Of a stretch of DNA of 60,740 nt, positions 1 through 46,552 are shown piece after piece. Positions within the stretch are counted from its first letter, which is position 1, and the number at the start of each line of letters is the position of its first letter. The position numbers were made by a program, and so were the translations under genes. The notes under the pieces are model-generated. The model was not told the origin of the DNA. It did no database searches and saw only the letters and a program-made list of their open reading frames with translations. This DNA is from a bacterium (GTDB lineage: Bacteria; Planctomycetota; UBA11346): positions 1-60,740 of the forward strand of contig JAIFND010000039.1 of assembly GCA_020047915.1 (NCBI GenBank). The letters are read 5' to 3'.

Positions 1-144
1 GGCGGAAGGCGGAAGGCGGAAGGCGGAAGAGTTGCTGAATCGAGTTGATGGGGGCCTGTCGTAGCGCCGACCCATTTTCGACTTCACGACTAGGCCGGCA
101 GTCCAATCCGCATTTCTTCCGCCTTCCGCCTTCCGACTTCCGCC
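1..144. repeat. Inverted tandem-heptamer element E1. (GGCGGAA)x4 arm at 1-29, 86-nt spacer, (TTCCGCC)-type arm at 116-144. The left arm may be cut by the window edge.
   Basis: Read directly: ggcggaaggcggaaggcggaaggcggaag ... cttccgccttccgccttccgacttccgcc. The arms are reverse-complementary with 1 mismatch. Confidence 0.85.
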
Positions 145-602
145 TTTCCAAGGTCAATGCCCTTAACGCAACGCCATTGGGTCCGGATCGCACACGCCGG
201 ATCGGTTGAGGCTTGGTCATGCAACTCGCCCAAACGTGCCGCGATGGCCAGATCGCCGAGTCTCAGCGCCGCGGTGATCCCGGCCCGCAGGGCGCGCACC
301 CGCCCAGAACTCGCCGTCGGCATGGCAGGCTCGTCTGCCATGCACGCACCAGGCCGGGACAGGGACGTATCCGCGGCAGACATACCCGATTCACATGTCG
401 GTTGATCATGCTCATTCACGTTCGCCATGGTGGGCAGCATCATCGCCTTCACGAGTCTCCGCCATGGGGTGAACTCCCCAGTCCCGCATGCAGGGATAAG
501 GGCCATGTCATTGATCAGGACCTGAGACCACCCCCGATCGGTCACCAATACGATGCAGCCGAGGCGCGTCAGGACGGCCGGCGGCTCGCACAAGCCCGCC
601 AT
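90..602 (-). CDS. Hypothetical protein; start uncertain. The 3' end runs into repeat E1.
   Basis: Open frame with strongly G/C-biased third positions in the stretch sampled (421-480). No recognisable motif. The C-terminal residues RRKAEE are a translation of the repeat arm. Confidence 0.3.
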   Translation of the reverse strand: MAGLCEPPAVLTRLGCIVLVTDRGWSQVLINDMALIPACGTGEFTPWRRLVKAMMLPTMANVNEHDQPTCESGMSAADTSLSRPGACMADEPAMPTASSGRVRALRAGITAALRLGDLAIAARLGELHDQASTDPACAIRTQWRCVKGIDLGKAEVGRRKAEEMRIGLPA

Positions 603-862
603 ACCATGGATATCAGCCGACCGCCAAGCAGCGCCAGGCTGAAAAATGACGGTTTTCCAGGCGCCCCAGTTGCCGCCGTTCCTGTTCCAAGAAAACCCGC
701 CACCACCGCGAGGACGGTGGAGGACAAGGTCTCGGCCCGCGCGGCCCCTCCTGCGACCGCACCAAAAGCCCTACCCAGTCTGGCCAGTTCGCTGGCCAAC
801 TGGGCCCGGTTCAGGTCGCTTTCCGCAAGCAACAAGCGCTTCTGCGCTTCGAGCCGATTCAT
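569..862 (-). CDS. YqjK-like small protein, third gene of an ElaB/YqjD-YqjE-YqjK type operon.
   Basis: N-terminus MNRLEAQKRLLLAESDLNRAQL is typical of YqjK-family proteins. The start overlaps the upstream stop (ATGA at 859-862). Confidence 0.55.
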   Translation of the reverse strand: MNRLEAQKRLLLAESDLNRAQLASELARLGRAFGAVAGGAARAETLSSTVLAVVAGFLGTGTAATGAPGKPSFFSLALLGGRLISMVWRACASRRPS

Positions 863-1248
863 GCCCGGAGGTCGGCGAGGCAGACGCGGTCCTTGCGCAC
901 CTGGTCAAGCGTCGCCGCGAATGGCGACCACTGACGCAGATGCCTGGTCAGAAGCCAGCTCAGAGCCGCGGCGACAGAGGCATAACCTGCCGCCAGGATG
1001 AGCAGCACTCCCAAGGGGGACCACGCCCACCCCTGCAGCACGATGGCGGCCGTGATGGCGATGCCGCAGAGCAGGCCGCAGCCGGCGATGCCCAGCACCA
1101 GCACCAACGCGTGCAGGAGGCGGTTGCGTTCCTCCTGCACCTCCACCGTGACCAGGGTCAGACGGTTCTCTGCGATGGTCAACACCTGTTCGGCGATACG
1201 TCGGGTCGTCACGGCAACCTGCAGACATCCATCCATGGTTTCCGCCAT
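859..1248 (-). CDS. YqjE-like membrane protein (DUF1469 / holin-X superfamily fold).
   Basis: ATG at 1246-1248. Two hydrophobic helices (LVLVLGIAGCGLLCGIAITAAIVL, GVLLILAAGYASVAAALSWLL). Lies between ElaB-like and YqjK-like genes. Confidence 0.6.
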   Translation of the reverse strand: MAETMDGCLQVAVTTRRIAEQVLTIAENRLTLVTVEVQEERNRLLHALVLVLGIAGCGLLCGIAITAAIVLQGWAWSPLGVLLILAAGYASVAAALSWLLTRHLRQWSPFAATLDQVRKDRVCLADLRA

Positions 1249-4416: not shown

Positions 4417-5109
4417 ATGACCGTCACCTTCATCGGGGATGTGCACGGCTGGCCGGAACGCCTCGCGGCCGTGCTCGCACGGTCCGAAGGTGAACTCGTG
4501 TTCATGGGCGATCTGATCGATCGCGGACCTGACACGCCGGCCGTGCTCGATCACGTCCGCACCCTGACCGACGAAGGCCGGGCCCGCTGCCTGCTGGGCA
4601 ACCATGAATACGCCCTGCTGCGCGGTCTGGGCGCCCCCGACCTCGACTTGGCACCGGATCCGGTGTGGTTCGGCCTGTGGCGCGACCGCCATGGGGGACG
4701 CAGCGTGCTGCGCGACTACCGCGCTGATGATGCGGCCTCTCTACGCCAGGCGATGGGGCCGGCGCTGATCAGCTGGCTCGCCGGCCTGCCGTGGTGCCTG
4801 GAAGGTCCCGGTTGGCTGGCCGTCCACGCCGCCCTGCGCCAGGATCAACCGTTCGCCGAACAGCTGGCCTGCCTACGCGACGGCTGGCGGCATCTGCTTC
4901 ATGAACCCGACCATCTGTACGAGAAGCCGGGGGTACTGCTCGATCATCCTGAACTGCCGCCGGGCGTCGTCCTGGTCAGCGGTCATCTGCCGCTGCCGGA
5001 GCCGTTGATCACCTCGCGACGCATCCTCTGCGACACCTCGGGCGGACTGCCCGGGCGGGTGCTGTCGGGCGTGGTGTGGCCGGGTGGCCGCGTAGTGACC
5101 TCAGCGTAA
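4417..5109 (+). CDS. Metallophosphoesterase, PPP family (ApaH/PrpE-like Ser/Thr phosphatase or diadenosine tetraphosphatase).
   Basis: Motifs GDVHG, GDLIDRGPD and GNHE starting at MTVTFIGDVHG. Confidence 0.8.
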   Translation: MTVTFIGDVHGWPERLAAVLARSEGELVFMGDLIDRGPDTPAVLDHVRTLTDEGRARCLLGNHEYALLRGLGAPDLDLAPDPVWFGLWRDRHGGRSVLRDYRADDAASLRQAMGPALISWLAGLPWCLEGPGWLAVHAALRQDQPFAEQLACLRDGWRHLLHEPDHLYEKPGVLLDHPELPPGVVLVSGHLPLPEPLITSRRILCDTSGGLPGRVLSGVVWPGGRVVTSA

Positions 5110-5405: not shown

Positions 5406-6533
5406 CTACATGATCTCCAGTTCGCCGTGCAGCGCCCCGGCCCGGTTGATCGCCTCGAAGATCGACACCAGATCGCGCGGCCGTGCGCCCATCGCGTTCA
5501 GCGCATTGGCGATCTGCTCGACCGTCACGCCTTCGACCATGCCCAGGGTGCCAGGGACGATCGGCGGCTGGATGCCGGCCGGCGGCTGGTCGCCGCGCAG
5601 CTTGGTCACCGGATCGCTCCACTGTACCCCGGTCGGCTGGCCATCGGGCCCGACCGGCTTGGCGGTCGGGGTGATGCGCAGCGACAGGCCGCCATGGCTG
5701 ACCGCGACCGCGCCGATGGCGACGGTCGAGCCGACCACGATCGTGCCGGTGCGGGCGTTGATCACGACGCGCGCGCGGACGTCGGGCGAGACGCGCAGAT
5801 CCTCGATACGGGCCAGGGATTCGACCACTTCTTGCGGTGTCGGCGGGCTGGCGAAGCGCAGCGCGATGGCGCGCGCATCCTCGGCGACGACACGTTCCTG
5901 GCCGAACACCTCGGCCAGCGCCTTGGCGACGCGCGAGGCGGTGGTGAAGTCGGGATCGCGCAGCACCAGGCGCAGGCGGTCCTTCTGCACCAGCGTCGCC
6001 GGCACCTCGCGCTCGACGATCGCTTCGATGACCGCGACAGTCTCGATGTTCTTATGATCGGTGCCTACCGGCCCGGGATTGGCCGGCGAGGCGGCACCGT
6101 AACCGCCGATCGAGACCGGACCCTGGGCGACGGCGTAGATCTTGCCGTCCCACGCATCGAGGGGCGTCTGCAGCAAGATGCCGCCGCGCAAGCTGGTGCA
6201 GTCGCCGATCGCTGACAGTTGGCTGTGCAGCCGGGTGCCGGCCTTGCTGAACGAGGGGATGTCGGCGGTCAGCGCGACCAGCGCCACGTTGCGCGAGTCG
6301 AGATCGCTTTCCGCCAGCGCCTGGTTCTTGCGTGCCAGCACCTGGCGCAGCAGCCGCTTGGTCGCCGGGCTCTTGTCGCCGGTGCCGGACAGGCCGACCA
6401 CGATGCCGATGCCATTGAGCTGGTTGTCGCGCACCCCGTCGATGGTGCACAGATCCTTCAGCCGCACGCCGTGCTGCGCTTCGCCGCCCGCCAGTATGGC
6501 AACGAGAGCCATGGCTAGAGCGATGTACCACAT
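5406..6533 (-). CDS. flgI: Flagellar P-ring protein FlgI.
   Basis: Full-length similarity pattern (GVRDNQLNGIGIVVGLSGTGD, LLQTPL, GPVSIGGY, ELEIM terminus). Signal peptide MWYIALAMALVAILAGG. ATG at 6531-6533. Confidence 0.92.
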   Translation of the reverse strand: MWYIALAMALVAILAGGEAQHGVRLKDLCTIDGVRDNQLNGIGIVVGLSGTGDKSPATKRLLRQVLARKNQALAESDLDSRNVALVALTADIPSFSKAGTRLHSQLSAIGDCTSLRGGILLQTPLDAWDGKIYAVAQGPVSIGGYGAASPANPGPVGTDHKNIETVAVIEAIVEREVPATLVQKDRLRLVLRDPDFTTASRVAKALAEVFGQERVVAEDARAIALRFASPPTPQEVVESLARIEDLRVSPDVRARVVINARTGTIVVGSTVAIGAVAVSHGGLSLRITPTAKPVGPDGQPTGVQWSDPVTKLRGDQPPAGIQPPIVPGTLGMVEGVTVEQIANALNAMGARPRDLVSIFEAINRAGALHGELEIM

Positions 6534-6554
6534 CCGTGATGCTGTCACCGAAAA

Positions 6555-6677
6555 GGCGGAAGGCGGAAGGCGGAAGGCGGAAGATCGGCACGCAGGCGAG
6601 TTGGAATGGGCATCAGGCAGGCACGCGCAGCGCGCAGCAATTCTTCCGCCTTCCGCCTTCCGCCTTCCGCCTTCCGG
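6555..6677. repeat. Inverted tandem-heptamer element E2. (GGCGGAA)x4 at 6555-6583, 59-nt spacer, (CTTCCGC)x5 at 6643-6677. Sits in the flgH-flgI intergenic gap.
   Basis: Read directly; four units pair perfectly. Confidence 0.9.
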
Positions 6678-6700
6678 CATGAAGGTATCCTCAAGACAAG

Positions 6701-7312
6701 CTAGAACGGCCATACGGTGTCCAATATCTTACCCAGCCACCCCTCCTGCTGGGCGCGGGTGAGCGGACCTTCCCCGACGATCGACACCTGCAGGTCGTAG
6801 AGCTTCTCGGACAGCACGGTGTTGTCGCTCTTGATGTCGCTGGGCCGGACGATGCCGGCGATCTGGATGGTCTTGCGATCTTCGTTGATCAGCACTTCGC
6901 GCGATCCGCGGATGACCAGCGAGCCGTTGTCGAGGACATCGACCACCTGCACCGCGATTGACGACCGCACCTTGTGGGTCAGGTCGAACTTGCCCTCGCC
7001 CTGGAACTGCTTGGACGAGTCCACATCCAATCCGGGCAGCTTGCCGAGTGCGGTCTCGCCCACGGCGGCCGGCAACTGGTTCGTTCCGGGCAGCAGGTTG
7101 ACGCCGATGTTGGCCTTGTTGTCCCGTTTGTTGTCGGTCTTCTCGTTCTCCGAGACCGAGGTCGTCTCCTGGATGACCACGGTCAGCAGATCACCACGCC
7201 GGCGCGCGGTGGCGTCGGCGTAGAGATTGCCGTCGGCAAGGGTCTCGGCCTGCCACAGGCTCTCGGCGGCCAACGAGGCGGCGAGGCACAGGAGGATCAG
7301 CAATGGTCGCAT
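6701..7312 (-). CDS. flgH: Flagellar L-ring protein FlgH.
   Basis: RGDLLTVVIQETTSVSE, LVIRGSREVLINEDRKTIQIAGIVRPSDI, LGKILDTVWPF. Signal peptide MRPLLILLCLAASLAA. ATG at 7310-7312. Confidence 0.9.
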   Translation of the reverse strand: MRPLLILLCLAASLAAESLWQAETLADGNLYADATARRRGDLLTVVIQETTSVSENEKTDNKRDNKANIGVNLLPGTNQLPAAVGETALGKLPGLDVDSSKQFQGEGKFDLTHKVRSSIAVQVVDVLDNGSLVIRGSREVLINEDRKTIQIAGIVRPSDIKSDNTVLSEKLYDLQVSIVGEGPLTRAQQEGWLGKILDTVWPF

Positions 7313-7384
7313 GTCGGGTTCCTCGACGGTGGCTCGGCTGACGGTCGTAGACGCAACGACCGTGCCAGGCACAGGTCACCGATA

Positions 7385-7419
7385 CTTAATTACAATTAAG
7401 GCAAGCACTTACGTGTCCT
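7385..7419 (-). promoter_or_regulatory. AT-rich 7-2-7 palindrome (cttaatt-ac-aattaag, 7385-7400) next to a weak GG-N10-GC (sigma-54-like) motif upstream of flgH.
   Basis: The minus strand reads AGGACACGTAAGTGCT (7419-7404) followed by the palindrome. This is the most AT-rich stretch I noticed in the window. Confidence 0.25.
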
Positions 7420-7431
7420 AATCCGACTTTC

Positions 7432-7625
7432 CACACAGAGGACCAGAGCACCAGAGGTGAAGGCATGGCTGTGCACGATTTCACTGGTGCACCGGCATGA
7501 ATTTCAGCGCACCGTACAACGCCTCTTGCCTCTGATTCTTTTGGTGCCCTGTGTGACTACTTCTTCAATTGAAAACCACCACTTCGCAGCCCGATGCTTC
7601 CTCTGGTCCTCTGGTCCTCCTTGTG
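7432..7625. repeat. Inverted tandem-octamer element H1. Arms at 7432-7463 and 7597-7625 built from (NACCAGAG) units, with a 133-nt comparatively AT-rich spacer.
   Basis: cacacagaggaccagagcaccagaggtgaagg ... cttcctctggtcctctggtcctccttgtg. Confidence 0.85.
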
Positions 7626-7646
7626 AATACAATGCGAGGTAAGGGA

Positions 7647-9152: not shown

Positions 9153-9258
9153 CGCCGGTGATTCTCAGGGGCGACGCCATCGGCCAACGGGAAAGACCAC
9201 TGGCCTGGACAGCCAGCATCCATTGCCCCAGGCGCGCGGGCCGCGCGCGATCCCAGGT

Positions 9259-9702: not shown

Positions 9703-9861
9703 GGTCTGGCTCCGGTCAAGCGGGGTGAAGGCCGCACCTGACGCAAGTCGCCGCCAACCGCAAGGACCAGTTGCGGCCCTGGACGACCCCCGCACCATCC
9801 GCCACCCCGCCGGTAAGGTGCGCAGCCCGTGCGCGTCTCCCGGATCCGTAACGGAGTTCCG

Positions 9862-13370: not shown

Positions 13371-13380
13371 GGAGCATATC

Positions 13381-15138: not shown

Positions 15139-15259
15139 GGAGCGCGGGCGCCCCCGCCCGACCGGACCGCGGGCGCCCTCGCCCGCGGCGCATGAGGCAG
15201 GGTCAACTGCTGCGGGCGGGGGCGCCCGCAGGCCGGTCGGGCGGGGGCGCCCGCGCTCC
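15139..15259. repeat. GC-rich nested inverted repeat. A perfect 27-bp outer arm pair (15139-15165 / 15233-15259) encloses a second imperfect copy of the same unit (15168-15187 / 15211-15230), with a 22-nt loop.
   Basis: ggagcgcgggcgcccccgcccgaccgg ... ccggtcgggcgggggcgcccgcgctcc. The unit GCGGGCGCCCCCGCCCG is repeated twice per arm. Confidence 0.85.
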
Positions 15260-16624: not shown

Positions 16625-16754
16625 TCACACAGAGCCCCAGAGTGACCAGAGGGGAAAGTCTTTGCATGGTACATCGACATGCACCGCCCGGGTGAACCCG
16701 AGAAATCGAGCAAATCCTTGTCTTGACCTCTGGTGGCTCTGGTTCTCTGTGTGA
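16625..16754. repeat. Inverted tandem-octamer element H2. Arms at 16625-16652 and 16727-16754 match at 24 of 28 positions, with a 74-nt spacer. Lies between convergent pfk and the rhodanese gene.
   Basis: tcacacagagccccagagtgaccagagg ... cctctggtggctctggttctctgtgtga. Shares the TCACACAGAG...CCAGAGG arm design with H1. Confidence 0.85.
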
Positions 16755-20640: not shown

Positions 20641-22356
20641 ATGAAGCGCTCGATCGCGCTCGGCCACTGCATCTGCGATCCGCGCCTGGGCTGCCCCTGT
20701 CCGACCCTGAAGAACGAGGACCGCTGCCCCTGCGCCGGCGAAACCGCGCCGGAACCACCCGCCGATGCCGTGATCCGGCTGACCCAGAGCGTCAAGGCGG
20801 CGGGCTGCGGCGCCAAGATCGGCAAGGCGCAACTCGCGAGCCTGCTCGGCAACCTGCCGGTGATCGATGATCCGCGCGTCCTGATCGGGTCGGCGGCCGG
20901 CGACGATGCCGCCGTGCTGCGCCTGGACGGGTCGCGCGATGACCTGGTGCAGACCGTCGATGTGCTCTCGCCGCCGGTCGATGATCCCTACAGCTACGGC
21001 CGCATCGCCGCCGCCAACGCCCTGTCCGACATCTGGGCGATGGGCGGCCGCGCGGAATGCTCCCTGTCGGTGGTCGGTTGGCCGATGCACGACCTACCGC
21101 CCAGCGCGCTGGCCGAGGTGCTGCGCGGCGGGGCCGAGGCGATGCGCGAGGCCGGCGTGCCGGTGGTCGGCGGGCAAAGCGTCAACGCCGCCGAACCCTT
21201 CGCCGGCTACAGCGTCACCGGCACCGTGGCCGCCGGGCGCGCGATCCGCAATCAGGGCGCGCAACCGGGCGATGTGCTGGTGCTGAGCAAGGCGCTGGGC
21301 GGCGGGTTCCTGGGGTTCGCGCAGCAGATCGGCCTACTCGCGCCCGAGCACCTCGCCGCCTGGACGGCGCAGATGGCGGCCTTCAACCGCGCCGCCGGCG
21401 AGGCCATGGCGCGGCATGGCGCGCATGCCGGCACCGATGTGACCGGCTTCGCCCTGCTCGGCCATGCGATCGAGATCGCCATGCGCTCGCCGTGCGATCT
21501 GGTCATCGATTTCGATCGCCTGCCGATCCATCCCGGCGTCCAGGACCTGGCCCGCCGCGAGGTGTGGCCGGGAGCCCTGGAGCGCAACCGCGAGGCAGTC
21601 GCGCCCGAGCGCCTTGACCTCGCCGGTCTGAGCCCCGCCCAGATCGCCGTCCTGTTCTGCCCCGAGACCTCGGGCGGCATCCTCGCCTTCCTGCCCGCCG
21701 ATGCGGTGTTTGGCTACCGTGCCGACTGCGCCACCGCCGGGGTGGCGACCAGCGTGATCGGCGAGGTCGTGGCCGGCACCGGGCGCATCCGCGTCACCAC
21801 CAGCGATGCCGCCGCGTGGTCGCCGCTGGGCATCCCGAAATCTAAGGCTCCGGCGCCGACCGCCGCCAAGCTGGCGGCCATGGAAAAAGCTGGAGGCTGG
21901 AAGCTGGAGGCTGGAAGCGTGGCCATCCAGGACCTCGCTACCATCGCAGATCCTGCACATCGCCTCGCCACTGCGATCGCCGCCGCTCCTCCAGCCTCCA
22001 GCCCCCAGCCTCCAGCCCTCCTCCCCGAGACACCGTGCTGCGCCGAACCGCCCGCCACGGCCAACGCCATGGCCCCGCTGCCTACCGTCAGCGGCCTGCC
22101 GCCCGCCGCCGCTGCAGCGGCCTTCACCGCCTACATGCAGGCGGTGACCGCGCCGGGCGCCCTCGACGCGCGGACCAAGAAGCTGATCGCGCTGGCCCTG
22201 TCGGTGGCCGGGCGCTGCGAACCGTGCGTCGGCATCAACGCCGAGGGCGCGCAGAAGGCCGGCGCCGACCAGGCGCAGATCGCCGAAGCAGTGGCCCTGG
22301 GCATCGCCTTCGGTGGCGCCCCGACCGCGATGTTCTACAACGGCCTGCGGAAATAA
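20641..22356 (+). CDS. selD: Selenophosphate synthetase SelD (Cys form) with a Cys-rich N-terminal extension, fused through a repeat-derived linker to a C-terminal AhpD/carboxymuconolactone-decarboxylase-like CxxC domain. Alternative start at 20605.
   Basis: IRLTQSVKAAGCGAKIG, DDAAV, FGRIAAANALSDIWAMGG-type motifs. No stop until 22354-22356. C-terminus ALSVAGRCEPCVGINAEGAQKAG is an AhpD-like core. Confidence 0.85.
   Translation: MKRSIALGHCICDPRLGCPCPTLKNEDRCPCAGETAPEPPADAVIRLTQSVKAAGCGAKIGKAQLASLLGNLPVIDDPRVLIGSAAGDDAAVLRLDGSRDDLVQTVDVLSPPVDDPYSYGRIAAANALSDIWAMGGRAECSLSVVGWPMHDLPPSALAEVLRGGAEAMREAGVPVVGGQSVNAAEPFAGYSVTGTVAAGRAIRNQGAQPGDVLVLSKALGGGFLGFAQQIGLLAPEHLAAWTAQMAAFNRAAGEAMARHGAHAGTDVTGFALLGHAIEIAMRSPCDLVIDFDRLPIHPGVQDLARREVWPGALERNREAVAPERLDLAGLSPAQIAVLFCPETSGGILAFLPADAVFGYRADCATAGVATSVIGEVVAGTGRIRVTTSDAAAWSPLGIPKSKAPAPTAAKLAAMEKAGGWKLEAGSVAIQDLATIADPAHRLATAIAAAPPASSPQPPALLPETPCCAEPPATANAMAPLPTVSGLPPAAAAAAFTAYMQAVTAPGALDARTKKLIALALSVAGRCEPCVGINAEGAQKAGADQAQIAEAVALGIAFGGAPTAMFYNGLRK
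21889..22024. repeat. Inverted tandem-heptamer element F1. (GCTGGAR)x4 at 21889-21918, 66-nt spacer, (CYCCAGC)-type arm at 21985-22024. Lies inside the selD ORF.
   Basis: gctggaggctggaagctggaggctggaagc ... gctcctccagcctccagcccccagcctccagccctcctcc. Translated in frame as AGGWKLEAGS ... APPASSPQPPALLP. Confidence 0.85.
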
Positions 22357-23737: not shown

Positions 23738-23829
23738 GCTGGAAGCTGGAAGCTGGAAGCTGGAAGCTGGAAGCATGATCCATCCACGGCTTCTCGTTCC
23801 TGTCGCCCCTCCAGCCTCCAGCCTCCAGC
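23738..23829. repeat. Inverted tandem-heptamer element F2. (GCTGGAA)x5 at 23738-23774, 33-nt spacer, (CCTCCAG)x3 at 23808-23829. Fills the convergent selA/pmbA gap.
   Basis: Read directly. Each unit carries an A-versus-G difference, so the pairing is uninterrupted (G-U) only in a minus-strand transcript. Confidence 0.88.
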
Positions 23830-23834
23830 GTCCC

Positions 23835-33046: not shown

Positions 33047-33062
33047 GTCTTTCCTATAAGGT

Positions 33063-35259: not shown

Positions 35260-35425
35260 CCGAAAAGCCGCATTTCACAAGGAGGAACAAAGGCAACAGA
35301 GCTCGCAACGACACATTGCGAGCGATAGGACAGATACGATTCGCGGGAGTGATCGGCTGTGTTCCACGTCATGTCGCCTCCGTTACCTTCGTTCCTCCGT
35401 GTGAATCCGGATGCGATCTCCAGGA

Positions 35426-35842: not shown

Positions 35843-35845
35843 GGG

Positions 35846-35983
35846 GTAGCTTAGAGCTTAGAGCTTTGAGCTTTGGGCTTTGAGCCCGAAGCGGTGCGTG
35901 ATTATTGGATTGCTGTGCAGCATAGGAAAAGTTCAGCGCAAAGTGAATGGTCTGCGGACTCTAAGCTCTAAGCTCTAAGCTTA
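35846..35983. repeat. Inverted tandem-heptamer element G1. (TAGAGCT/TTGAGCT)-type arm at 35846-35885, 72-nt AT-richer spacer, (CTAAGCT)x3 arm at 35958-35983 that overlaps the infB stop codon.
   Basis: gtagcttagagcttagagctttgagctttgggctttgagc ... actctaagctctaagctctaagctta. Confidence 0.88.
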
Positions 35984-38900: not shown

Positions 38901-39058
38901 GTCTCGAGGCCGTCGCAGGCCAGGATGCGGGCGACCTCTGCTTCCTTCAGCACCGACTCGGCGCCTTTGGTAAGTTTGATCTTGAGATCGACCTCGACGA
39001 CCTCGACCAGGAGGTCGAGGGAGAGGTTATGGGCCTTGGCCAACTCGGCGAGCTTCAT
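35981..39058 (-). CDS. infB: Translation initiation factor IF-2.
   Basis: [22 protein letters not shown]-domain. Charged and Gly/Pro-rich N-terminal region. 1025 aa. Confidence 0.95.
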
Positions 39059-39125
39059 GCAGTTTCCGTAGGGGCGAACACGATGGCGCGGTTCCGGCCG
39101 CGCTCAAGCGGCGGTCTGCGCCGTG

Positions 39126-40433
39126 TCAGGAGGCCGCCGAGGACGAGGTCGGGGCCGGCTGGGCGGCGGCGGTGGCGGCGGCGGCGATGGCGCGCGCCTC
39201 TTCTTCCTGGGCACGGCGCTCGGCCTCGGCGCGCTGTTCAAGCAGCTTCTGCTTGTCGGCGCGCTGCTCGGGGGTGAGCAGCTCTTCGGCCTTGGCGATC
39301 AGCTTGGTGGCCAGCTCGAGATCGACCGGGGCGCCCTGCAGGCCCTCGACCAGGCGCTCGGGCACCTGGGCGGCAAGCACCGAGAGGGCGTCGAGGTGGT
39401 TGTCGAGGAAGGTCTCGCGCAGGAAGTCGTCGAGCAGCTTGGCGTCGATGAGCAGCTGGAGCTCTTCCGAGCCCTTCTGGCGCTTCTCGGTCTGCGCCTC
39501 TTCGCTCATCACGTCGATCTTGTAGCGGGTCAGGCGGGCCGACAGGCGGACGTTCTGGCCGGCCTTGCCGATCGCCAGGGGCAGCTGGTCCTGCGACACC
39601 ACGACGCGGGCGCGGTCGCGGAAGTGGTCGTAGCTGATGCGCAGGATGCGGGCGGGCTTGAGCGAGTTCTCGATGTACTGCGCCGAGTCCTCGGCCCACG
39701 GGATGATGTCGATCTTCTCGCCGCCGAGTTCATCGGTGACCTTGCTGATGCGGCTGCCGCGCATGCCGACGCACGAACCGACCGGGTCGATGCGCGGATC
39801 AGTGCTGGCGACCGCGATCTTGGTGCGGCGGCCGGGCTCGCGCACGATGCCCTTCACCTCGATCAGGCCGTCGGCGATCTCGGGGATCTCGGCACGGAAC
39901 AACTCGCGCACGAAGTTGGCGTGGGTACGCGAGAGGACGATGCGCAGGCGGCTGCCCTTCTTCTCGCACTTCAGCACGTAGGCGCGCACCACCGCACCGG
40001 GGCGGTACACCTCGCCGGGCAACTGCTCCTCTTTCGGCATGATCGCCTCGGCGCGGCCGCCCAGGGCGATGATCGCCATGCCGTGCTCTTCACGCATGAC
40101 CGTGCCTGAGACGACGGTGTGCAGACGGGGTGAGAAGTCGTCGTAGAGGCGGTCTCGCTCGGTCTCGCGCAGGCCCTGCACGAAGACCTGCTTGGCGACG
40201 TTGGCGACGATACGGCCGAGCGTCTCGAGATCGACCGGCTTGTCGTCCTCGAAGGCGCGGATCTCGCCGCTCTCGCGGTCGATCGTCACGGTGAAGTCGC
40301 CGGTCGCGTCGAAACGCTTCTGGGCGGCCTGCTGCATCGCGCGCTCGATGTGGTCGATGATCACGGATTTGTCGACGCCGCGCTCCTTGGCGAGGGCTTC
40401 GACGCGCTGCAGGAAATTGGCGGCGTTGAACAT
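39126..40433 (-). CDS. nusA: Transcription termination/antitermination factor NusA.
   Basis: N-terminal domain, S1, two KH domains (GACVGMRGSRI-type motif) and an acidic C-terminal repeat. Upstream of infB. Confidence 0.95.
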   Translation of the reverse strand: MFNAANFLQRVEALAKERGVDKSVIIDHIERAMQQAAQKRFDATGDFTVTIDRESGEIRAFEDDKPVDLETLGRIVANVAKQVFVQGLRETERDRLYDDFSPRLHTVVSGTVMREEHGMAIIALGGRAEAIMPKEEQLPGEVYRPGAVVRAYVLKCEKKGSRLRIVLSRTHANFVRELFRAEIPEIADGLIEVKGIVREPGRRTKIAVASTDPRIDPVGSCVGMRGSRISKVTDELGGEKIDIIPWAEDSAQYIENSLKPARILRISYDHFRDRARVVVSQDQLPLAIGKAGQNVRLSARLTRYKIDVMSEEAQTEKRQKGSEELQLLIDAKLLDDFLRETFLDNHLDALSVLAAQVPERLVEGLQGAPVDLELATKLIAKAEELLTPEQRADKQKLLEQRAEAERRAQEEEARAIAAAATAAAQPAPTSSSAAS

Positions 40434-40565
40434 CTGGATCGTCCTAGACGAAAAAAGCGTGAGCCGGAGGGCCCACGCTTCCGGTTTCCCGAAAGGTTGA
40501 GACGGCAGGAGGGTATCGTCTTTCGCGGGTGGTCAATGTGGATCCGGCGGGGCAGGGGGAGGGGA

Positions 40566-40712
40566 GGCGGAAGGCGGAAGGCGGAAGGCGGAAGAGTCGC
40601 TTGATGCGTGCGATCGGCATCAGTCCGGTTCACGGGCCAATGCTGCGCCCGGCGGATGGCGACGATCGCGCAACTTGGCAATTCTTCCGCCTTCCGCCTT
40701 CCTCCTTCCGCC
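40566..40712. repeat. Inverted tandem-heptamer element E3. (GGCGGAA)x4 at 40566-40594, 89-nt spacer, (TTCCKCC)x4 at 40684-40712. Lies between the RACo-like gene and nusA.
   Basis: Read directly. One unit carries a G-to-T change (cttcctcc). Confidence 0.9.
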
Positions 40713-40728
40713 TTTCGACCTGGGTGTG

Positions 40729-42216
40729 CTACGCCCCCGCCCCCGGAAATGCCATCGCATCTATGTACGTGTCGTCGAAGCTGGGTTCGATCTTCAGTTC
40801 GACCTGGCGGGTCAGCGAGCGGATCGCGGTATAGGCATGATCATCATCATGCAGGGCCAGGCGCGCGCCGAGCAGGGCGCTGTTGCCCGACGGGCTGATG
40901 CGCTCGGGGGCGATGGGCAGCAGGCCGATACGCACCGCAGAAACGATGCGCACGTAGTTGCCGAAGGCGCCGGCCAGGAAGACCCGACGCAGGTCGTGCA
41001 CCGTGCCACCGCGCGCCTTGCACAGCAGATGTATGCCGGCCGCGATCGCGCCCTTGGCAAGCTGCAGCTGGCGCACATCCATGCCCTGCAGGGCGAGGCC
41101 GGGCGCCAGCGGCAGGTCGGTGCGGCCGCGCGCCAGTCGCCCCGAGGGCACGATCCAGCCGAGTTCAAGGGCGGCGGCGACCGCATCGACCAGACCACTG
41201 CCGCAGATGCCGCGCGGCGCACCGCCACCCAGCACCTCGGGCGCCAGGGCACCGTCCACCGCCTGCACCGCGCCGATCGCGCCGGTCGCGGCGCGCATGC
41301 CGATCGAGATGCCGGCGCCCTCGAATGCCGGCCCGGCGGCGGTGCTGGCGCACACCAGGCCATCGCGCCCGCCGCACACCAACTCGCCGTTGGTGCCCAG
41401 GTCGATGAGCAGGTTGAGGCCATCGAGACGGTGCAGCCCGGTGGCGAGGATGCCGGCAGTGAGGTCCGAGCCGACGAAGCCGCCGAGGCAGGGCAGGACG
41501 CGCACCGGGGCGTCGATGCCCCAGCCGAGATCGCGCGCCTGCAGGTCCAGCAGTCCATCCTCCACCGGCCGGTAGGGCGGGGTGGACAGCGGCGTGACGT
41601 CGATGCAACCGAACAGGTGGTGCATCGCGGTGTTACCGACCACCACAACGAGGCGCACCGGGACCGGCGCGAGGACGGCCAGTTCGCCGGCCATGCGGCC
41701 CAGTTCGCCGCGCACCAGGCCGGCCAGCTCGGCGGCGCCGCCACGCTTGGCGTGGTCGATGCGCGTCATCAGGTCGGCACCGAGACGGGCCTGCGGATTC
41801 AGCGCGGTGCGCGTCGCCAGCACCCGGCCATCGCGGCGATCGACCAACTGGGCGACCAGGGTGGTGGTGCCGAGGTCGATGGCGATGCCGCAGCCGTCAC
41901 GCGGCGCGACCGTCACCGGGGTGTCATCGGCGAGGACCGGGCTCGACCAGCGCGCCAGCTCCAGGACCAGGCCATCGTACGCCGCCATGCGGCAGCCGAG
42001 GCGCCAACCGGCGGCAAGCTGGTCCGGGGTGAACGAGCGCAGGTCGGCCTCGACCGGGGGCGGTGGCACCGACAGCACGCGCACCCGGCAGGCCTTGCAC
42101 GTGCCGCGCCCGCCGCACGGGAACTCGACCCCATGCGGGAACAGCAGCTGCTGCAGCGGCGTCCCGGCAGCGACCTCGAGTGTGGTTCCGGCGGGCAGCA
42201 GGCGGACCGTCGCCAT
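40729..42216 (-). CDS. Corrinoid reductive activase (RACo/AcsV-like): 2Fe-2S ferredoxin domain plus an ASKHA ATPase domain (DUF4445).
   Basis: N-terminus CGGRGTCKACRV plant-type ferredoxin motif. IAIDLGTTTLV and LLIDLGTNGE ASKHA phosphate motifs. Confidence 0.8.
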   Translation of the reverse strand: MATVRLLPAGTTLEVAAGTPLQQLLFPHGVEFPCGGRGTCKACRVRVLSVPPPPVEADLRSFTPDQLAAGWRLGCRMAAYDGLVLELARWSSPVLADDTPVTVAPRDGCGIAIDLGTTTLVAQLVDRRDGRVLATRTALNPQARLGADLMTRIDHAKRGGAAELAGLVRGELGRMAGELAVLAPVPVRLVVVVGNTAMHHLFGCIDVTPLSTPPYRPVEDGLLDLQARDLGWGIDAPVRVLPCLGGFVGSDLTAGILATGLHRLDGLNLLIDLGTNGELVCGGRDGLVCASTAAGPAFEGAGISIGMRAATGAIGAVQAVDGALAPEVLGGGAPRGICGSGLVDAVAAALELGWIVPSGRLARGRTDLPLAPGLALQGMDVRQLQLAKGAIAAGIHLLCKARGGTVHDLRRVFLAGAFGNYVRIVSAVRIGLLPIAPERISPSGNSALLGARLALHDDDHAYTAIRSLTRQVELKIEPSFDDTYIDAMAFPGAGA

Positions 42217-42242
42217 CAGCGATCCTCACCCGATGCAGGCAA

Positions 42243-42408
42243 GGCGGAAGGCGGAAGGCGGAAGGCGGAAGAGTTGCCAAGCCGGGACGATGGACGCTGT
42301 CCGCCTGGATCAGCCCACCGCCCGTTCGGACCCAGGGCGCACGCTAAAGCTGTATCCCCGAGCGCGCAGATCCGCATTTCTTCCGCCTTCCTCCTTCCGC
42401 CTTCCGCC
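42243..42408. repeat. Inverted tandem-heptamer element E4. (GGCGGAA)x4 at 42243-42271, 108-nt spacer, (TTCCKCC)x4 at 42380-42408. Lies between the DUF1638 gene and the RACo-like gene.
   Basis: Read directly. Shares the junction motifs gagttgc and atccgcatttcttcc with E1. Confidence 0.9.
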
Positions 42409-42427
42409 TTCGTCGGCCTGCCCGCCC

Positions 42428-43186
42428 TCACGCTTCCGCCCCGATCAGGCTGCCATCGTAACGCGGCACGATGCGGCTTCCGGGCGGCACGACCAGGAAG
42501 CGCTGCTCGTCCCACGGCCCGTTGACCAGGGCCTCGATCCAGGCGGTGTCGCCGGGCATCACCTCCAGGCGCCAGCCCTGGCTGGCGGCGCGACGGGCGG
42601 CCTCGGCGCGCACCCCCTCCTGCGGACCAACCCCGGTATCGATGTAGGCCAGACGCTCGTAGTGACGGCATTGCGCCTGCATCTCGTCCCACAGGTAGCG
42701 GGCGTTGTCCTCGCCGTACTTCTCCAGCATGCGCCGCCAGGCCGGGTCATCGGCCGGCGGATCCTTGGGCGTGTTGGCCAGCCAGTCGCTGGCGTCGCCG
42801 CGAAAGCGCTCGATCCAGCCGATCGACAGCCAGTAGGTGCCAGGGGCCTTGGCGTGCTCGTCGGTGAAGCGCTTGGCCGAGCCGAGCAGGCAGGCGATGC
42901 AGTCGTGGCTACGCAGGGCGACCAGCGGAGCGTGGCGCGCCTGCAGGCCGAGGATGCCGTTGTTGCACAGGGCGTAGCCGAGGATCACCGCGTCGTAGCC
43001 TTCGGCCGGTACGGCATCGATCGCAGCCTGGATCTCGCGCGCCATCGGCTTGCCGCCCTGGCTGTGCAGGTTGGCGGGCAGGAAGCGGATATCCACGAGG
43101 TTGGGCGAGCGCGCCGCTGCGGCGGCCAGTTCACGCGTGAACACGCCGCAGCCGATCGCAGCGTAGCGCTTGGCCACGATGGTCAT
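42428..43186 (-). CDS. DUF1638 domain protein (typical neighbour of corrinoid methyltransferase systems).
   Basis: Family-like N-terminus (AAIGCGVFTREL) and conserved context with a B12-binding protein. Starts 3 nt after the upstream stop. Confidence 0.65.
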   Translation of the reverse strand: MTIVAKRYAAIGCGVFTRELAAAAARSPNLVDIRFLPANLHSQGGKPMAREIQAAIDAVPAEGYDAVILGYALCNNGILGLQARHAPLVALRSHDCIACLLGSAKRFTDEHAKAPGTYWLSIGWIERFRGDASDWLANTPKDPPADDPAWRRMLEKYGEDNARYLWDEMQAQCRHYERLAYIDTGVGPQEGVRAEAARRAASQGWRLEVMPGDTAWIEALVNGPWDEQRFLVVPPGSRIVPRYDGSLIGAEA

Positions 43187-43188
43187 CG

Positions 43189-43827
43189 TCAGGCCGGCGC
43201 GACCAGGCGCCGGGCCAGGGCGACGGCAGAGCTGGCGTTGTCGCTGTAGCCGTCAGCGCCGATCTCCTTGGCGTAGGCGTCGGTGATCGGCGCGCCGCCG
43301 ATCATCACCTTGACCTTGCCGCGCACGCCCGAGGCGTTGAGCGCCGCCAGGGTGTCCTTCATCGCCGGCATGGTGGTGGTGAGCAGGGCGGAGAGGGCGA
43401 TGATGTTGGCCCCCTTCTCGTTCACCGCGGCGACGAACTTGTCGGGCGCGACGTCGACACCGAGGTCGATGATCTCGAAGCCGCCGCCTTCCAGCATCGC
43501 GGCGACCAGGTTCTTGCCGATGTCGTGCAGGTCGCCCTTGACCGTGCCGATGGCGACCTTGCCGACCGGCTGCACGCCACTCTTGGCGAGCAGCGGACGG
43601 ATCAGCTCCATCGAGCCCTTCATCGCGCGGGCCGAGATCAGCAGCTCGGGCACGAAATACTCGTTACACTCGAAGCGGCGGCCGACCTCGTCCATGGCCG
43701 GGATCAGCGCTTTGCCGAGCAGGTCGCCGGGGGAGACGCCGGCCTTGATGGCGGCGTCGGTCAGCGCCTTGGCGGTCTTGGCGTCGCCATCGACAACGGC
43801 GTCATGAAGGGGCTTGAGATCGGTCAT
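43189..43827 (-). CDS. Cobalamin-binding corrinoid protein (MtaC/MtbC-like).
   Basis: B12-binding-2 helical cap plus a Rossmann domain with GTVKGDLHDIGKNLV (DxHxxG) and the SALLTTT motif. Confidence 0.85.
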   Translation of the reverse strand: MTDLKPLHDAVVDGDAKTAKALTDAAIKAGVSPGDLLGKALIPAMDEVGRRFECNEYFVPELLISARAMKGSMELIRPLLAKSGVQPVGKVAIGTVKGDLHDIGKNLVAAMLEGGGFEIIDLGVDVAPDKFVAAVNEKGANIIALSALLTTTMPAMKDTLAALNASGVRGKVKVMIGGAPITDAYAKEIGADGYSDNASSAVALARRLVAPA

Positions 43828-43907
43828 GGTCGGGCTCCTGGCGGAAGGCGTGGTTGCTGGCTGCGATGATAGGTCGGCACACGGACAGACACCTATCTTT
43901 TACGATC

Positions 43908-44819
43908 ATGGATGCGACCATTACGATCATGGCCAGGAACCCCGCGCAGTTCACCATCGTCACTGACTTCCCGCCCCGCACCTGCGACACCTCGCCGTCC
44001 TTCGCCCGCTCGCTGGCCAGCCTGGCGCTGCCCCAGGTCAGCGCCGCACTCTACGCATGCACCGCCGCCTGGCGCATTCCGCGCCGGCGCCAACGCCATG
44101 ATCTGCTGCTGCTGCCGCTGGCCGGTCGCCTCAAGGCCGGCATCGATGGGCGCTGGTACGCCCTCTCCCCGCGCCGGCTGCTGCTCGCCCCGCGTGGCAG
44201 CTGGGTGCAGGCCGAGGCCGATCCAGCCGCCCCGCCGCGCCTGGCCATCATCGTCCTGCGTGCCGACACCGCGGGCGGGATACCGGTGCAGGTGGCGGCC
44301 GGACTGCCGTGGGCGGTGCAGCTGCGCGACGAGGACGGCGTCGAGGCCCTGCTGCTCGCCGCCTGCCGCGAGGACGCGCAGCGCGCTCCTGGCTGGCAGC
44401 CGGCCGTGCATGCCCTGGTCATCCAGGCGCTGGTGGCGGTCGCGCGCCGCGCCGGAGCGCGCACCGCCATCCGCAACCCGGCTTCAGCCGGCGCGCTGGC
44501 ACGCATCAGTCCGGCCCTGGCGGTGATGAGCCAGGACCTCGCCCAGCCGCTGCGTATCCCCGAGCTGGCGCTGGCCTGCGGACTGGGCGCGGTGCAGTTC
44601 CGCCGCCTGTTCCGCGCCGCCCTGGCGCGCACGCCGATCCAGCACCTGCACCGCCTGCGTCTGGCCGAGGCGCAACGCCTGCTCGCCGGGGGGGCGCTGG
44701 TGCATGAGGCGGCCGAGGCGGTGGGTTACCGCTCCAGCGCCTGCCTCGACCGTATCTTCCGCCGCCTCGCCAACGCCCCGCCGGGGCGCTGGCGGCAGAC
44801 GGCGCTGGGCCTCACCTGA
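43908..44819 (+). CDS. AraC-family transcriptional regulator.
   Basis: C-terminal double HTH (IPELALACGLGAVQFRRLFR ... EAAEAVGYRSSACLDRIFRR). Divergent from the corrinoid genes. Confidence 0.78.
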   Translation: MDATITIMARNPAQFTIVTDFPPRTCDTSPSFARSLASLALPQVSAALYACTAAWRIPRRRQRHDLLLLPLAGRLKAGIDGRWYALSPRRLLLAPRGSWVQAEADPAAPPRLAIIVLRADTAGGIPVQVAAGLPWAVQLRDEDGVEALLLAACREDAQRAPGWQPAVHALVIQALVAVARRAGARTAIRNPASAGALARISPALAVMSQDLAQPLRIPELALACGLGAVQFRRLFRAALARTPIQHLHRLRLAEAQRLLAGGALVHEAAEAVGYRSSACLDRIFRRLANAPPGRWRQTALGLT

Positions 44820-46449
44820 TCGCCGGCACCCCGTCCCACGCCAGGATCAGGGCGCCACGCCGCGCCAGGTCGGCCCACACCGCGATGCGCCGGGCCCCGG
44901 GCACGAAGGCCGTGGCATCGACCAGTCCCAGACGCGCGGCCAGGCCACTGCCCTTGGGAAAGCGTTCGAGCGGCAAGGGGGCAGCCTCGCCGGCGAAGGC
45001 GCGCGCCCGCGCCACCGCGCTCGCCAGGGTGCCCAGGCCATCAGCCAGGCGCTCGGCGACCGCCTGCTCGCCGGTGAAGACCCGGCCCTGGGCGAGGGTG
45101 TCGATGCGCTCGCGGGGCAGGTTGCGGCGCTGCGCGACCAGGCGGCGGAACCGGTCGTCGACATCGGCGATGACCCGGCGATACACCGCCTCGCGCTCGG
45201 CCGTCCAGCCGAAGGGCGACATCAGCGCCCCATGCGGCGCGGCCAGTTCGACGTGGCGGCGCACGCCGAGGAGGTCGGCGGCCCCCTGCAGATCGGGGAC
45301 CATGGCGAAGGCGCCGATCGACCCAGTGATGGTGGCGCGGTGGACGCGGATCTCGCGCGCCGCGCAAGCGATCCAGTAGCCGCCGCTGGCGGCCACGCCA
45401 TCCATCAGGCAGACCACCGGCTTGGCCTCGTCGAGGCGGCGCACAGCGTGGTGGATGCGGTCGCTGGCGGTGGCATCGCCGCCCGGCGAGTCGATGCGCA
45501 GCACCACCGCCGCAACCCGGCGGTCGTCGCGCAACCGGTCGAGCAGGGCGCAAGTGTCGCCATCAGCGACGGTGTCGCCGGGCATCGAATGCTCGCCTGG
45601 GATGATCATGCCGGCCAGCTCGACCACCGCGACCGAGCGCGCCGGACGCGCCGCGGAATCACCGCCGAGCAACTGGCCCCAGAAGCGCATCATCCCGGCG
45701 AAGCTGCTGAGGTCGGGAACCTCGGCCCCGAAACGCACGCGGCGCAAGGGCGTGGGCTGCGCCGCCAGCCAGGCGCCCGGCTCGACCGCCTGAGTGACCA
45801 GGCCAAGGCCCTTGGCCGCGCTGCCGGTCTGCAGGCCCTCGGCCCGCGCCTTGGCCAGGTCCAGGCCCGGACGCGCCGCCAGGGACACCAGCACACGGTC
45901 CATCCCCTCGATCAGTTGGCGCATCTCGGCCCGGGCGGCATCCGAGGGCCCCTCACGGGTGAAGGTCTCGGGAGCGGTCTTGAACTCGCCGCTGGCCACG
46001 GCGTGGAAGCGCACCCCGACCCGCGCCAGCGCAGGGGCCAGGTACCAGCCCTCGGCCGCCAGGCCATGCACCGCGAGGACGCCAGCGGCGGGCATCACCA
46101 CCTCGTCGCAGGCCGCGGCGATGACCAGGGCGGGGTCGCCGACCCGGTCGAGCAGGCAGGCGACGCTGGTACCGGGGCCGCGCTCGCGCAGCACCGCTGC
46201 GATCTCCTCGGCGGCGGCCAGGCCCCCCGAAAAACCGCGCGACAGGTCGAGGACGAGGCGTGCCTCGCCCGCCGCCAGGGCGTCGCGCAGCTTGGTGGTC
46301 ACCTCGTGCAGCGACGGGTCACCGCCGCCGAGGAAGCCTTCGGAGGGGCGCAGGGCGAGATCCCCGTTCAGGGTCAGCAGCACCGTCCCGCGCGCCTCGC
46401 CGGCGGCGAGGGCGAGGGTGGCGAAAAGCGCCAGGATGATGCGAAGCAT
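44812..46449 (-). CDS. sppA: Signal peptide peptidase SppA, two-domain (67K) type.
   Basis: Two ClpP/crotonase-fold halves, GVAASGGYWIA (Ser nucleophile region), signal anchor MLRIILALFATLALAAG. ATG at 46447-46449. Confidence 0.85.
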   Translation of the reverse strand: MLRIILALFATLALAAGEARGTVLLTLNGDLALRPSEGFLGGGDPSLHEVTTKLRDALAAGEARLVLDLSRGFSGGLAAAEEIAAVLRERGPGTSVACLLDRVGDPALVIAAACDEVVMPAAGVLAVHGLAAEGWYLAPALARVGVRFHAVASGEFKTAPETFTREGPSDAARAEMRQLIEGMDRVLVSLAARPGLDLAKARAEGLQTGSAAKGLGLVTQAVEPGAWLAAQPTPLRRVRFGAEVPDLSSFAGMMRFWGQLLGGDSAARPARSVAVVELAGMIIPGEHSMPGDTVADGDTCALLDRLRDDRRVAAVVLRIDSPGGDATASDRIHHAVRRLDEAKPVVCLMDGVAASGGYWIACAAREIRVHRATITGSIGAFAMVPDLQGAADLLGVRRHVELAAPHGALMSPFGWTAEREAVYRRVIADVDDRFRRLVAQRRNLPRERIDTLAQGRVFTGEQAVAERLADGLGTLASAVARARAFAGEAAPLPLERFPKGSGLAARLGLVDATAFVPGARRIAVWADLARRGALILAWDGVPAIR

Positions 46450-46457
46450 ATCCGTGG

Positions 46458-46552
46458 GCTGGAGGCTGAAGGCTGGAGGCTGGAGGCTCCCAGCCACCCG
46501 CCGACAGGTCCCGCGGCCCCCAGCTTCCAGCCTCCAGCTTCCAGCCTCCAGC
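46458..46552. repeat. Inverted tandem-heptamer element F3. (GCTGRAG)x4 at 46458-46487, ~32-nt spacer, (CAGCYTC)-type arm at 46520-46552. Lies between a small ORF and sppA.
   Basis: gctggaggctgaaggctggaggctggaggc ... ccagcttccagcctccagcttccagcctccagc. Confidence 0.88.

Follow-up and report, generated by a model that had tools for sequence, protein, structure and literature searches.

Dispersed hairpins with arms of tandem heptamers in a Planctomycetota contig as probable foldback insertion elements placed behind gene ends

What are the dispersed hairpins, with arms of short tandem repeats mirrored across a spacer, that occupy the gaps between genes in a planctomycete genome, and how did they come to be there? 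We address this question in a 60.7-kb metagenomic contig with 69% G+C (JAIFND010000039.1, assembly GCA_020047915.1; Planctomycetota, UBA11346), and refer to this whole stretch of 60,740 nucleotides as the window. Its homologues of NusA, FlgH and SelA likewise assign it to the Planctomycetota. A reading made from the letters alone, called the sequence-only reading below, had listed 11 such loci, and had offered RNA processing, bidirectional termination and protein landing pads as possible roles. The elements are named here after their arms: E1-E4 carry GGCGGAA, F1-F3 carry GCTGGAR and G1 carries AGAGCTT as the tandem unit, while H1-H3 and X are built otherwise. On a balance that tips modestly in their favour, we regard these elements as lineage-specific non-autonomous foldback insertion elements, of the type of MITEs (miniature inverted-repeat transposable elements) or REPINs, with stems made mostly of four 7-nt units.

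The arms were located with Tandem Repeats Finder and an inverted-repeat search. According to Tandem Repeats Finder, the two arms of E1-E4, F1-F3 and G1 are all arrays of period 7 (3.3-5.4 copies, 83-100% matches), and each clean heptamer array is accompanied by its mirrored partner, so that the window is without solo arrays. The top inverted-repeat matches are the same loci, with arms of 23-51 nt that are 86-100% complementary and spacers of 27-142 nt. Our own inverted-repeat scan, cut off at a score of at least 17, returned 10 inverted repeats in the window against one in total across 20 dinucleotide shuffles of it, and nine of the ten are elements listed here. Nine elements were folded as RNA and compared with 200 dinucleotide shuffles: their energies lie between -46 and -133 kcal/mol and their z-scores between -4.3 and -14.8, and not one of the 200 shuffles is equally stable. 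The DNA folds reach z -5.5 to -9.6. All 11 loci of the sequence-only reading are thus real, being supported by repeat arrays, top-ranking inverted repeats and folds far above shuffles, and H3, which sits in the rbfA-gpsA gap and was absent from that list, is a twelfth hairpin. The G-rich arm is the 5' arm in all eight heptamer hairpins of the window, and none of the units GGCGGAA, GCTGGAR and AGAGCTT contains a GGG run.

The evidence that carries our reading comes from relatives, in which the orthologous gaps were compared as had been proposed along with the list. E3 is missing in contig L204 (nusA DNA 94% and RACo 90% identical), where the nusA leader follows the RACo stop at once; the window is about 196 nt longer at this place, and its RACo has three added codons and a new stop. 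G1 is missing in L201 and in the contig of P0004 (NusA 93% identical), which read infB stop, 4 nt and rbfA ATG, so that a gap of 138 nt in the window stands against one of 4 nt. E2 is missing in L233 (FlgH 84% identical), which reads flgH TGA, 5 nt and flgI ATG, and a relative at 91% (L230-232) has another repeat at this site, a copy of a 170-bp unit of the window. The H1 site in L230 holds 742 nt of unrelated DNA. F1 is missing from the 548-aa fusion of SelD with a carboxymuconolactone-decarboxylase-family (CMD) domain in L205, and the window protein is about 44 residues longer in its linker. Five elements (E2, E3, G1, H1 and F1) are therefore polymorphic for presence and absence. At the same-species level (L234, 99.64% identity), E2 is unchanged and the arms of H1 differ by two substitutions. 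L201 carries F-type hairpins at sites of its own, and no hairpin was found in six other related contigs (L199, L200 and L202-L205).

Since filled sites stand opposite empty orthologous sites, the hairpins are gained or lost as whole units, at a pace slower than the divergence of strains and faster than that of species. This is clean evidence that close relatives differ by the presence or absence of complete hairpins. The insertion of single arms into existing spacers is ruled out by empty sites of 0-5 nt, and the spacers therefore arrive together with the arms. The sequence-only reading had dismissed insertion sequences and MITEs as an explanation; the absence of E2, E3 and G1 in relatives and the spacer homology within families amount to insertion-like behaviour, and the dismissal is not supported. 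Terminal inverted repeats (TIRs), a short non-coding core and several copies, which characterise MITEs, are all found here, with cores that are conserved in part.

Pfam bears out the gene neighbours of the elements. All nine elements measurable in the window begin 0-24 nt past the upstream gene's stop codon, several finish 4-23 nt ahead of the next start codon, and the divergent gaps of the window hold no element. The elements survive only where genes stay intact, that is, directly past a stop, in convergent gaps or in an in-frame protein linker. The earlier count of seven co-directional gaps, two convergent gaps and one open reading frame (ORF) was borne out. Among the co-directional cases, E2 (flgH/flgI) lies 24 nt past the flgH stop and 19 nt ahead of the flgI ATG (6533), H1 (SagB-like nitroreductase/flgH) lies 22 nt past the nitroreductase-gene stop, and X (FKBP/PFK) lies 4 nt past the FKBP-gene stop. 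G1 occupies the entire infB-rbfA gap, with the infB stop TAA within its first heptamer and the rbfA ATG 4-5 nt past its last. E4 (DUF1638/RACo) lies 17 nt past the DUF1638 stop and 23 nt ahead of the RACo start; E3 (RACo/nusA) lies 15 nt past the RACo stop and about 130 nt ahead of nusA; F3 (small ORF/sppA) lies 5 nt past the small-ORF stop and 4-8 nt ahead of the sppA ATG (46449). H2 is placed between the convergent stops of PFK (16618) and rhodanese (16776), and F2 between those of SelA (23734) and PmbA (23835). F1 lies within an ORF, and its arms translate as AGGWKLEAGS and PPASSPQPPAL in the inter-domain linker of the SelD(AIRS)-CMD fusion.

Table 1. Hairpin elements of the window, with fold z-scores against shuffles where given.
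Element	Position	Architecture	z
E1	1..146	(GGCGGAA)4 arm, 86-nt spacer, (TTCCGCC)4 arm	RNA -9.0
E2	6553..6676	perfect 32-bp (GGCGGAA)4 stem, 57-nt spacer	RNA -10.6
H1	7432..7625	H-family, termini CACACAGAGG...CCTCCTTGTG, weak 8-nt periodicity	
X	15139..15259	GC-rich 51-nt arms, 92% complementary; REP/BIME-like	RNA -14.8
H2	16625..16754	H-family	RNA -6.6
F1	21887..22017	(GCTGGAR)4 arms, in frame inside ORF	RNA -8.2
F2	23738..23833	(GCTGGAA)5 / (CCTCCAG)3.7 arms	RNA -4.3
H3	35274..35405	H-family, termini TTCACACGGAGG...CCTCCTTGTGAA	-7.7
G1	35846..35983	(AGAGCTT)n arms	RNA -7.5
E3	40562..40714	(GGCGGAA)4 arms	RNA -10.6
E4	42239..42411	(GGCGGAA)4 arms	
F3	46454..46554	(GCTGGAG/GCTGAAG) arms	RNA -7.2

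The elements in Table 1 split into three classes: the heptamer-armed E, F and G hairpins, the MITE-like H family, and X, which resembles repetitive extragenic palindromic (REP) sequences and bacterial interspersed mosaic elements (BIMEs). The idea of a single architecture therefore stands for E, F and G, which share tandem 7-nt units, and not for H1-H3 and X, which are without them. The window holds four copies of E, three of F and three of H. The claim of five unrelated arm sequences was overstated, as the E (GGCGGAA) and F (GGCTGAA/GGCTGGA) units are only 1-2 bases apart. All E copies have GGCGGAAG-ARTTGC in common at the inner end of the stem, and E1 and E4 have the inner ends GGAAGAGTTGC and ATCCGCATTTCTTCC in common. 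The left arms of E are identical at 29 of 29 positions, and the spacers at about 60-70%; the spacers of E3 and E4 are homologous in opposite orientation (z 5.6). H1-H3 form an ordinary MITE-like family with weak 8-nt periodicity, for which Tandem Repeats Finder gives only weak period-8 arrays in H1 (2.6 copies). The termini TTCACACRGAGG...CCTCYKTGTGAA are common to H1, H2 and H3, the interiors of H1 and H2 are 73% identical (z 9.5), and H1 corresponds to an H2-like unit with an additional 3' arm. Spacers had been described as non-conserved and 22-133 nt long; neither the range nor a general lack of relatedness is upheld by the lengths and homologies given above. Each arm of X consists of two units of about 25 nt, every unit being a small palindrome, with no heptamers.

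The elements are not a product of assembly. Part of the window is identical to NCBI assembly GCA_003482625.1; H2, F1 and F2 are recovered at 99.98-100% in two more assemblies of the same organism (L206 and L207), E2 and H1 in L234, which comes from a separate sample, and E4 in identical form in an independent European Nucleotide Archive (ENA) contig (L001). An artefact is ruled out by this agreement of three assemblies and a second sample. Hairpins are also present in the contig L054 of about 1 Mb, whose metagenome-assembled genome (MAG) we take to be a long-read assembly. Assembly break points do fall at elements, as is expected of multi-copy repeats: the first base of the window falls exactly in the left arm of E1, L206 begins in X, and L208 spans F1 to F2. 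The E1 end of the window shows a further peculiarity. Left of window position 492, the same-species contig L234 (8681-8772, compared with window 1-492) is wholly different and AT-rich, and the E1 end of the window is therefore sample-specific, or one of the two contigs is chimeric.

Additional observations concern the genes and gaps around the elements. The selenophosphate synthetase (AIRS domains) that carries F1 (window 20605-22356) is naturally fused to its CMD domain, and the fusion is also found in a relative. The mechanical ORFs 5406-6713, 44812-46560 and 20479-22356 run through E2, F3 and F1, and the true starts are the flgI and sppA ATG codons given above; gene callers over-extend likewise in related contigs, for example with a 440-aa flgI in L232. 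The 170-bp unit, which contains many GC hairpins, is present twice in tandem behind panD, at window 33063-33394. Its copy in L230 (6651-6755, 81% identity) fills the flgH-flgI gap exactly where the window has E2, and this unit is therefore also dispersed and probably mobile. In L201, the region after rbfA (8347-8768) has F-type arms 360 nt apart around a (CCGCGAA)4.7 array, together with further strong hairpins. E4 and E3 lie in a 4.3-kb block (window 40521-44822) between sppA and nusA, which comprises an AraC-type regulator, a B12-binding protein, DUF1638, E4, RACo and E3; sppA and nusA are adjacent in L200 (NusA 95% identical), and synteny breaks upstream of nusA in every relative examined. 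In L205, the gap that follows selA (5870-6030) holds a tRNA-like 3' part (GGTTCGACTCC), which could be tRNA-Sec; in the window, selA is followed by F2 and the convergent pmbA.

The elements are not confined to this lineage. An exact search with three and a bit E units, at one genome per species, found the E arm at no fewer than 117 genome loci in Chloroflexota, Planctomycetota, Verrucomicrobiota, Acidobacteriota, Bacteroidota, Actinomycetota and others. Among the matches listed, about a quarter have the mirrored arm, which is downstream of the G-rich arm with one exception. The E arm is also found on 21 viral contigs, and the four that have the hairpin are likewise G-first. Occurrence beyond the window, on which the proposal of a general feature depended, is thereby established. 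A metagenome search with the RACo protein gave relatives at no more than 57% identity, too distant for comparing orthologous sites, which served as about 1 Mb of unselected control sequence. Applied to the E-arm loci and to 80 unselected loci, a generic detector finds tandem repeats of period 7 more often than those of any other period, also where the loci were not chosen for repeats, and it distinguishes over 50 units. Across the hairpins of all loci, four units is the commonest arm length, and the G-rich arm leads in 41 distinct units, the C-rich arm in 5 (p 4e-8). The same design therefore exists in many phyla with many heptamers, with the G-rich arm nearly always 5' on both strands. An ORF of at least 150 codons ends within 40 nt of the edge in 43 of 61 hairpins, against 6.8 under random placement, and such ends flank both edges in nine, against 0.3, a control which chiefly shows that hairpins are intergenic and tight to gene ends. 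Solo arrays have the G-rich strand following a stop codon in 40 cases against 14. Horizontal spread is not needed for the presence of GGCGGAA in many phyla, given that array-bearing genomes hold dozens of other heptamers, and no inner motif is common across phyla among the E-arm loci. In L137, L140 and L143 an orthologous hairpin is kept at one site, with a number and order of units that vary and variants that are unmirrored, which points to slippage in place. A gammaproteobacterial MAG (L008) has (GGCGGAA)4 at 2880-2908, about 80 nt upstream of lepA, and a mirrored (CCGCCTT)4 at 4786-4816, directly after the lepA stop, so that two arrays 1.9 kb apart bracket this gene.

The foldback insertion elements that we propose may be maintained and may act as follows. 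Replication slippage would create the arrays and keep them uniform, which would account for near-identical E arms beside drifted spacers, and hairpin-templated strand switching may keep both arms matched. As the elements lie within operons such as flgH-flgI and nusA-infB-rbfA, they are expected to be co-transcribed, as perfect RNA duplexes of 28-35 bp just past stop codons. By analogy with Correia and REP elements, such duplexes would be RNase III substrates, blocks to 3'-exonucleases, or both, and we infer that action as an RNase III or 3'-end element is the most likely effect of the co-transcribed duplex; the RNase III or stability sites suggested by the sequence-only reading stay plausible. 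The G-first order may itself be selected, as the C-rich arm would then never be exposed as a Rho loading site.

Several points weigh against the insertion of foldback elements. No transposase, REP-associated tyrosine transposase (RAYT) or other candidate mobilising gene was found among the 40 window proteins scanned, with no PF01797-type match. Likewise, no autonomous parent emerged: in 200 loci, what lies between mirrored arrays at a distance of 0.4-5 kb is lepA, secE-rplA or a beta-propeller gene, and no transposase. No consistent direct repeat was seen at the junctions of E2, E3, E4, F3 and H1-H3, with flanks read by eye. G1 alone shows TA at both junctions, in a comparison with empty-site relatives that are 6-18% diverged and with ends that are poorly defined. 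The sequence-only reading had it right that the window is without a transposase, a clear target duplication or spacing of the CRISPR kind (short palindromic repeats, clustered and regularly interspaced). At E2 and E3 the gained DNA exceeds the hairpin by about 25-28 nt per side, and these flanks differ between copies, so that the true element ends are undefined. Families have only 3-4 visible copies each, and copy-and-paste is accordingly deduced from few cases; the direction of the E3 difference, gain or loss, cannot be polarised. Universal G-first polarity is unexpected of ordinary transposon ends and points to an added constraint. Arm mismatches, of which there are few, show no bias of G-U over A-C on the transcribed strand.

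The constraint implied by the polarity is the starting point of the principal alternative, in which a structured RNA or DNA has grown in place: slippage would lengthen a pre-existing stem at each site, selection would favour a long duplex past the stop (for operon punctuation, RNA stability or RNase III processing), and similar heptamers would reappear through convergence or because slippage in a given genome is biased. The G-first order across phyla and the mode of four units, both independent of the heptamer, suggest that structure or function is constrained; the arms are conserved far more than the spacers; the hairpin in L137, L140 and L143 persists at one site while its arrays are remodelled; and solo arrays favour the G-rich strand past stops as well. 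However, the ancestral junctions of 0-5 nt (infB-rbfA, flgH-flgI and RACo-nusA) offer no hairpin to start from, and now measure 124-196 nt. Growth in place is also at odds with the non-repeat bases of the inner stem and the spacer homology common to copies, with the in-frame copy F1 within a protein, and with the different repeat that another relative has at the flgH-flgI site. We consider it an unlikely account, though one to be kept in view. The arms could also be rows of sites bound by a protein with a 7-bp reading unit, much as heptad repeats are recognised by ribbon-helix-helix proteins, among them plasmid omega; the mirroring would then be due to protein geometry on double-stranded DNA and not to base pairing. 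The strict 7-nt period, the roughly four units per arm, the preference for gene ends and the solo and paired arrays in other genomes would suit such a protein. Yet this genome has at least three heptamers, and more than 50 exist across genomes, so that many proteins would be needed; moreover, each arm is the exact reverse complement of the other for 28-35 nt, adjacent non-repeat bases included, which is predicted by pairing and not by independent sites, and the elements have no linked gene for a candidate protein of this kind. Protein landing pads, suggested by the sequence-only reading, find no support here, and we hold protein-site arrays to be very improbable.

The position of H2 and F2, snug between convergent genes, and of all elements just past stops would fit factor-independent bidirectional transcription terminators. 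Nevertheless, a terminator scan over 6000-24500 and 32500-47500 called no element, no T-run of five or more follows the 3' arms, and the loops span 27-142 nt. Ordinary intrinsic terminators do exist in the window, at 33021-33046 and 59197-59236, and the genome is therefore not short of canonical ones; one has a 17-bp stem, a 6-nt loop and A/T-rich flanks, and the other an 11-bp stem and then a T-rich tail. Seven or eight elements lie in conserved operons (flgH-flgI and infB-rbfA), where termination would be harmful. The bidirectional terminators that had been suggested thus fail in the canonical sense, and are an exceedingly improbable explanation. The formation of a G-quadruplex or i-motif, for which four units would supply four G-tracts, has been proposed for the GGGAATC repeats of Xanthomonas and the GGGGAYT repeats of Nostoc, and the Xanthomonas repeats do form quadruplexes in vitro (PMC4692102). 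The G-rich 5' arms and the four-unit mode agree with it. Still, E arms have GG runs only, the F and G arms (GCTGGAR and AGAGCTT) are without tetrad-stable G-tracts, and the competing duplex in paired elements is worth -46 to -100 kcal/mol. The four-unit mode is also found in many heptamers that are unable to form G-tetrads, which weakens the quadruplex as a general explanation, and we give it hardly any credence. Readings as CRISPR, integron attC, tRNA-linked or retron-like elements are ruled out on architecture. The repeats are inverted, occur as single pairs and lie 1.5-14 kb apart, which is not the arrangement of a CRISPR array. No element matched Rfam 15 at the gathering score, and the only matches in the window are tRNA-Leu and signal recognition particle (SRP) RNA.

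Foldback insertion elements, as preferred here, have partial counterparts in known systems. Eukaryotic foldback transposons have long inverted arms of short tandem repeats around a variable middle, and are much larger. Rickettsia palindromic elements (RPE) can insert in frame in protein-coding genes, as F1 does. Both belong to different hosts and have no sequence relationship to the elements described here. A close resemblance in form is that to Xanthomonas campestris and X. axonopodis, with about 185 (GGGAATC)n arrays in each of two genomes, mostly of four units (Rehm et al. 2015, PMC4692102). These arrays form convergent inverted pairs in 70-75 cases, are intergenic in 89-93%, are rare between divergent genes and are transcribed; their mean distance is 28 nt to the upstream ORF, as opposed to 160 nt to the following one. 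The authors could assign them no function and inclined towards G-quadruplex formation (PMC4692102). The 7-nt units, the mode of four, the convergent G-first pairs, the proximity to the upstream ORF end and the rarity in divergent gaps are shared. In contrast, the present host is a member of the Planctomycetota with other heptamers, and as these are without G3 tracts, the quadruplex rationale for Xanthomonas (PMC4692102) does not carry over. Furthermore, the clean heptamer arrays of the window are all paired, whereas those of Xanthomonas are mostly solo. The feature is real and its kind is already recorded in the literature; new beyond PMC4692102 are the insertion polymorphism, the spacer homology, the in-frame coding copy and the cross-phylum polarity. 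In the literature we found such hairpins described for no planctomycete, neither the polarity rule nor the insertion polymorphism mentioned, and no paper with the exact E-arm string.

REPINs and REP-BIME elements (PMC3116915, PMC3337134, PMC3733652) similarly have inverted units around a less conserved spacer and form a long hairpin; like the present hairpins they are dense and intergenic and fall into more than one family within a genome, and they show no target duplication and have roles at the 3' ends of mRNAs. The REP unit, however, is an imperfect palindrome of 20-40 bp with a GTAG/CGTC tag, whereas the E, F and G arms are tandem heptamers that are unable to self-fold and have no tag. A closer match to REP than the heptamer hairpins is offered by X and by the repeat at 19366-19440. 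This REP-like repeat (TCGTCGATCACGGGCGAGACGCCCGTGCCACA, with a small CACGGGCG/CGCCCGTG hairpin) is present at window 19366-19440 and 32974-33006, as one inverted doublet between convergent genes and one copy after panD. Correia elements, or Correia repeat enclosed elements (CREE), of Neisseria (PMC2649163) and enterobacterial repetitive intergenic consensus (ERIC) sequences are comparable in being 100-200 bp long, with terminal inverted repeats, gene-adjacent and variably present between strains. These elements are transcribed with their neighbours into hairpins, which is only expected here, and RNase III binds the hairpins of Correia elements and either cleaves or protects them (PMC2649163). 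Unlike the tandem-array TIRs and weakly conserved cores described here, Correia elements have a defined TIR of 26 bp around a core that is conserved, and they duplicate TA at the target. The short tandemly repeated repetitive (STRR) sequences of cyanobacteria and the TAACTGA repeats of Beggiatoaceae (PMC4679880) are likewise abundant intergenic heptanucleotide arrays of 2-6 or more units near ORF ends in scattered phyla, but they are nearly all direct, with only one inverted set reported among 169 in 'Maribeggiatoa' and few in Nostoc.

The paired form is very dense in the window: extrapolated from 12 hairpins in 60 kb, a whole genome would contain several hundred. In practice, such hairpins break short-read assemblies and mislead ORF callers, with three ORFs called through elements here. 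The survey of about 200 loci yields three testable rules: the G-rich arm comes first, arms mostly have four units, and elements lie immediately past stops. If RNase III cuts or exonuclease blocks occur, expression within the flagellar and nusA-infB-rbfA operons would be reshaped. A bacterial excess of 7-nt tandem repeats has been noted since the cyanobacterial STRRs (1990) and again in Xanthomonas (2015), and a 2007 survey, as cited in PMC4692102, also noted it. A broader and decidedly tentative possibility, which we think more likely wrong than right, is that the heptamer-armed hairpins are a single cross-phylum class, marked by the three rules above and made or spread by a process that is independent of arm sequence and leaves no target duplication, and that they could be operon punctuation read by RNase III. 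Hairpin-templated repeat formation or an undescribed single-strand mobilisation route may be such a process. If this is true, the cross-phylum class would give the long-noted bacterial excess of 7-nt repeats both a mechanism and a function.

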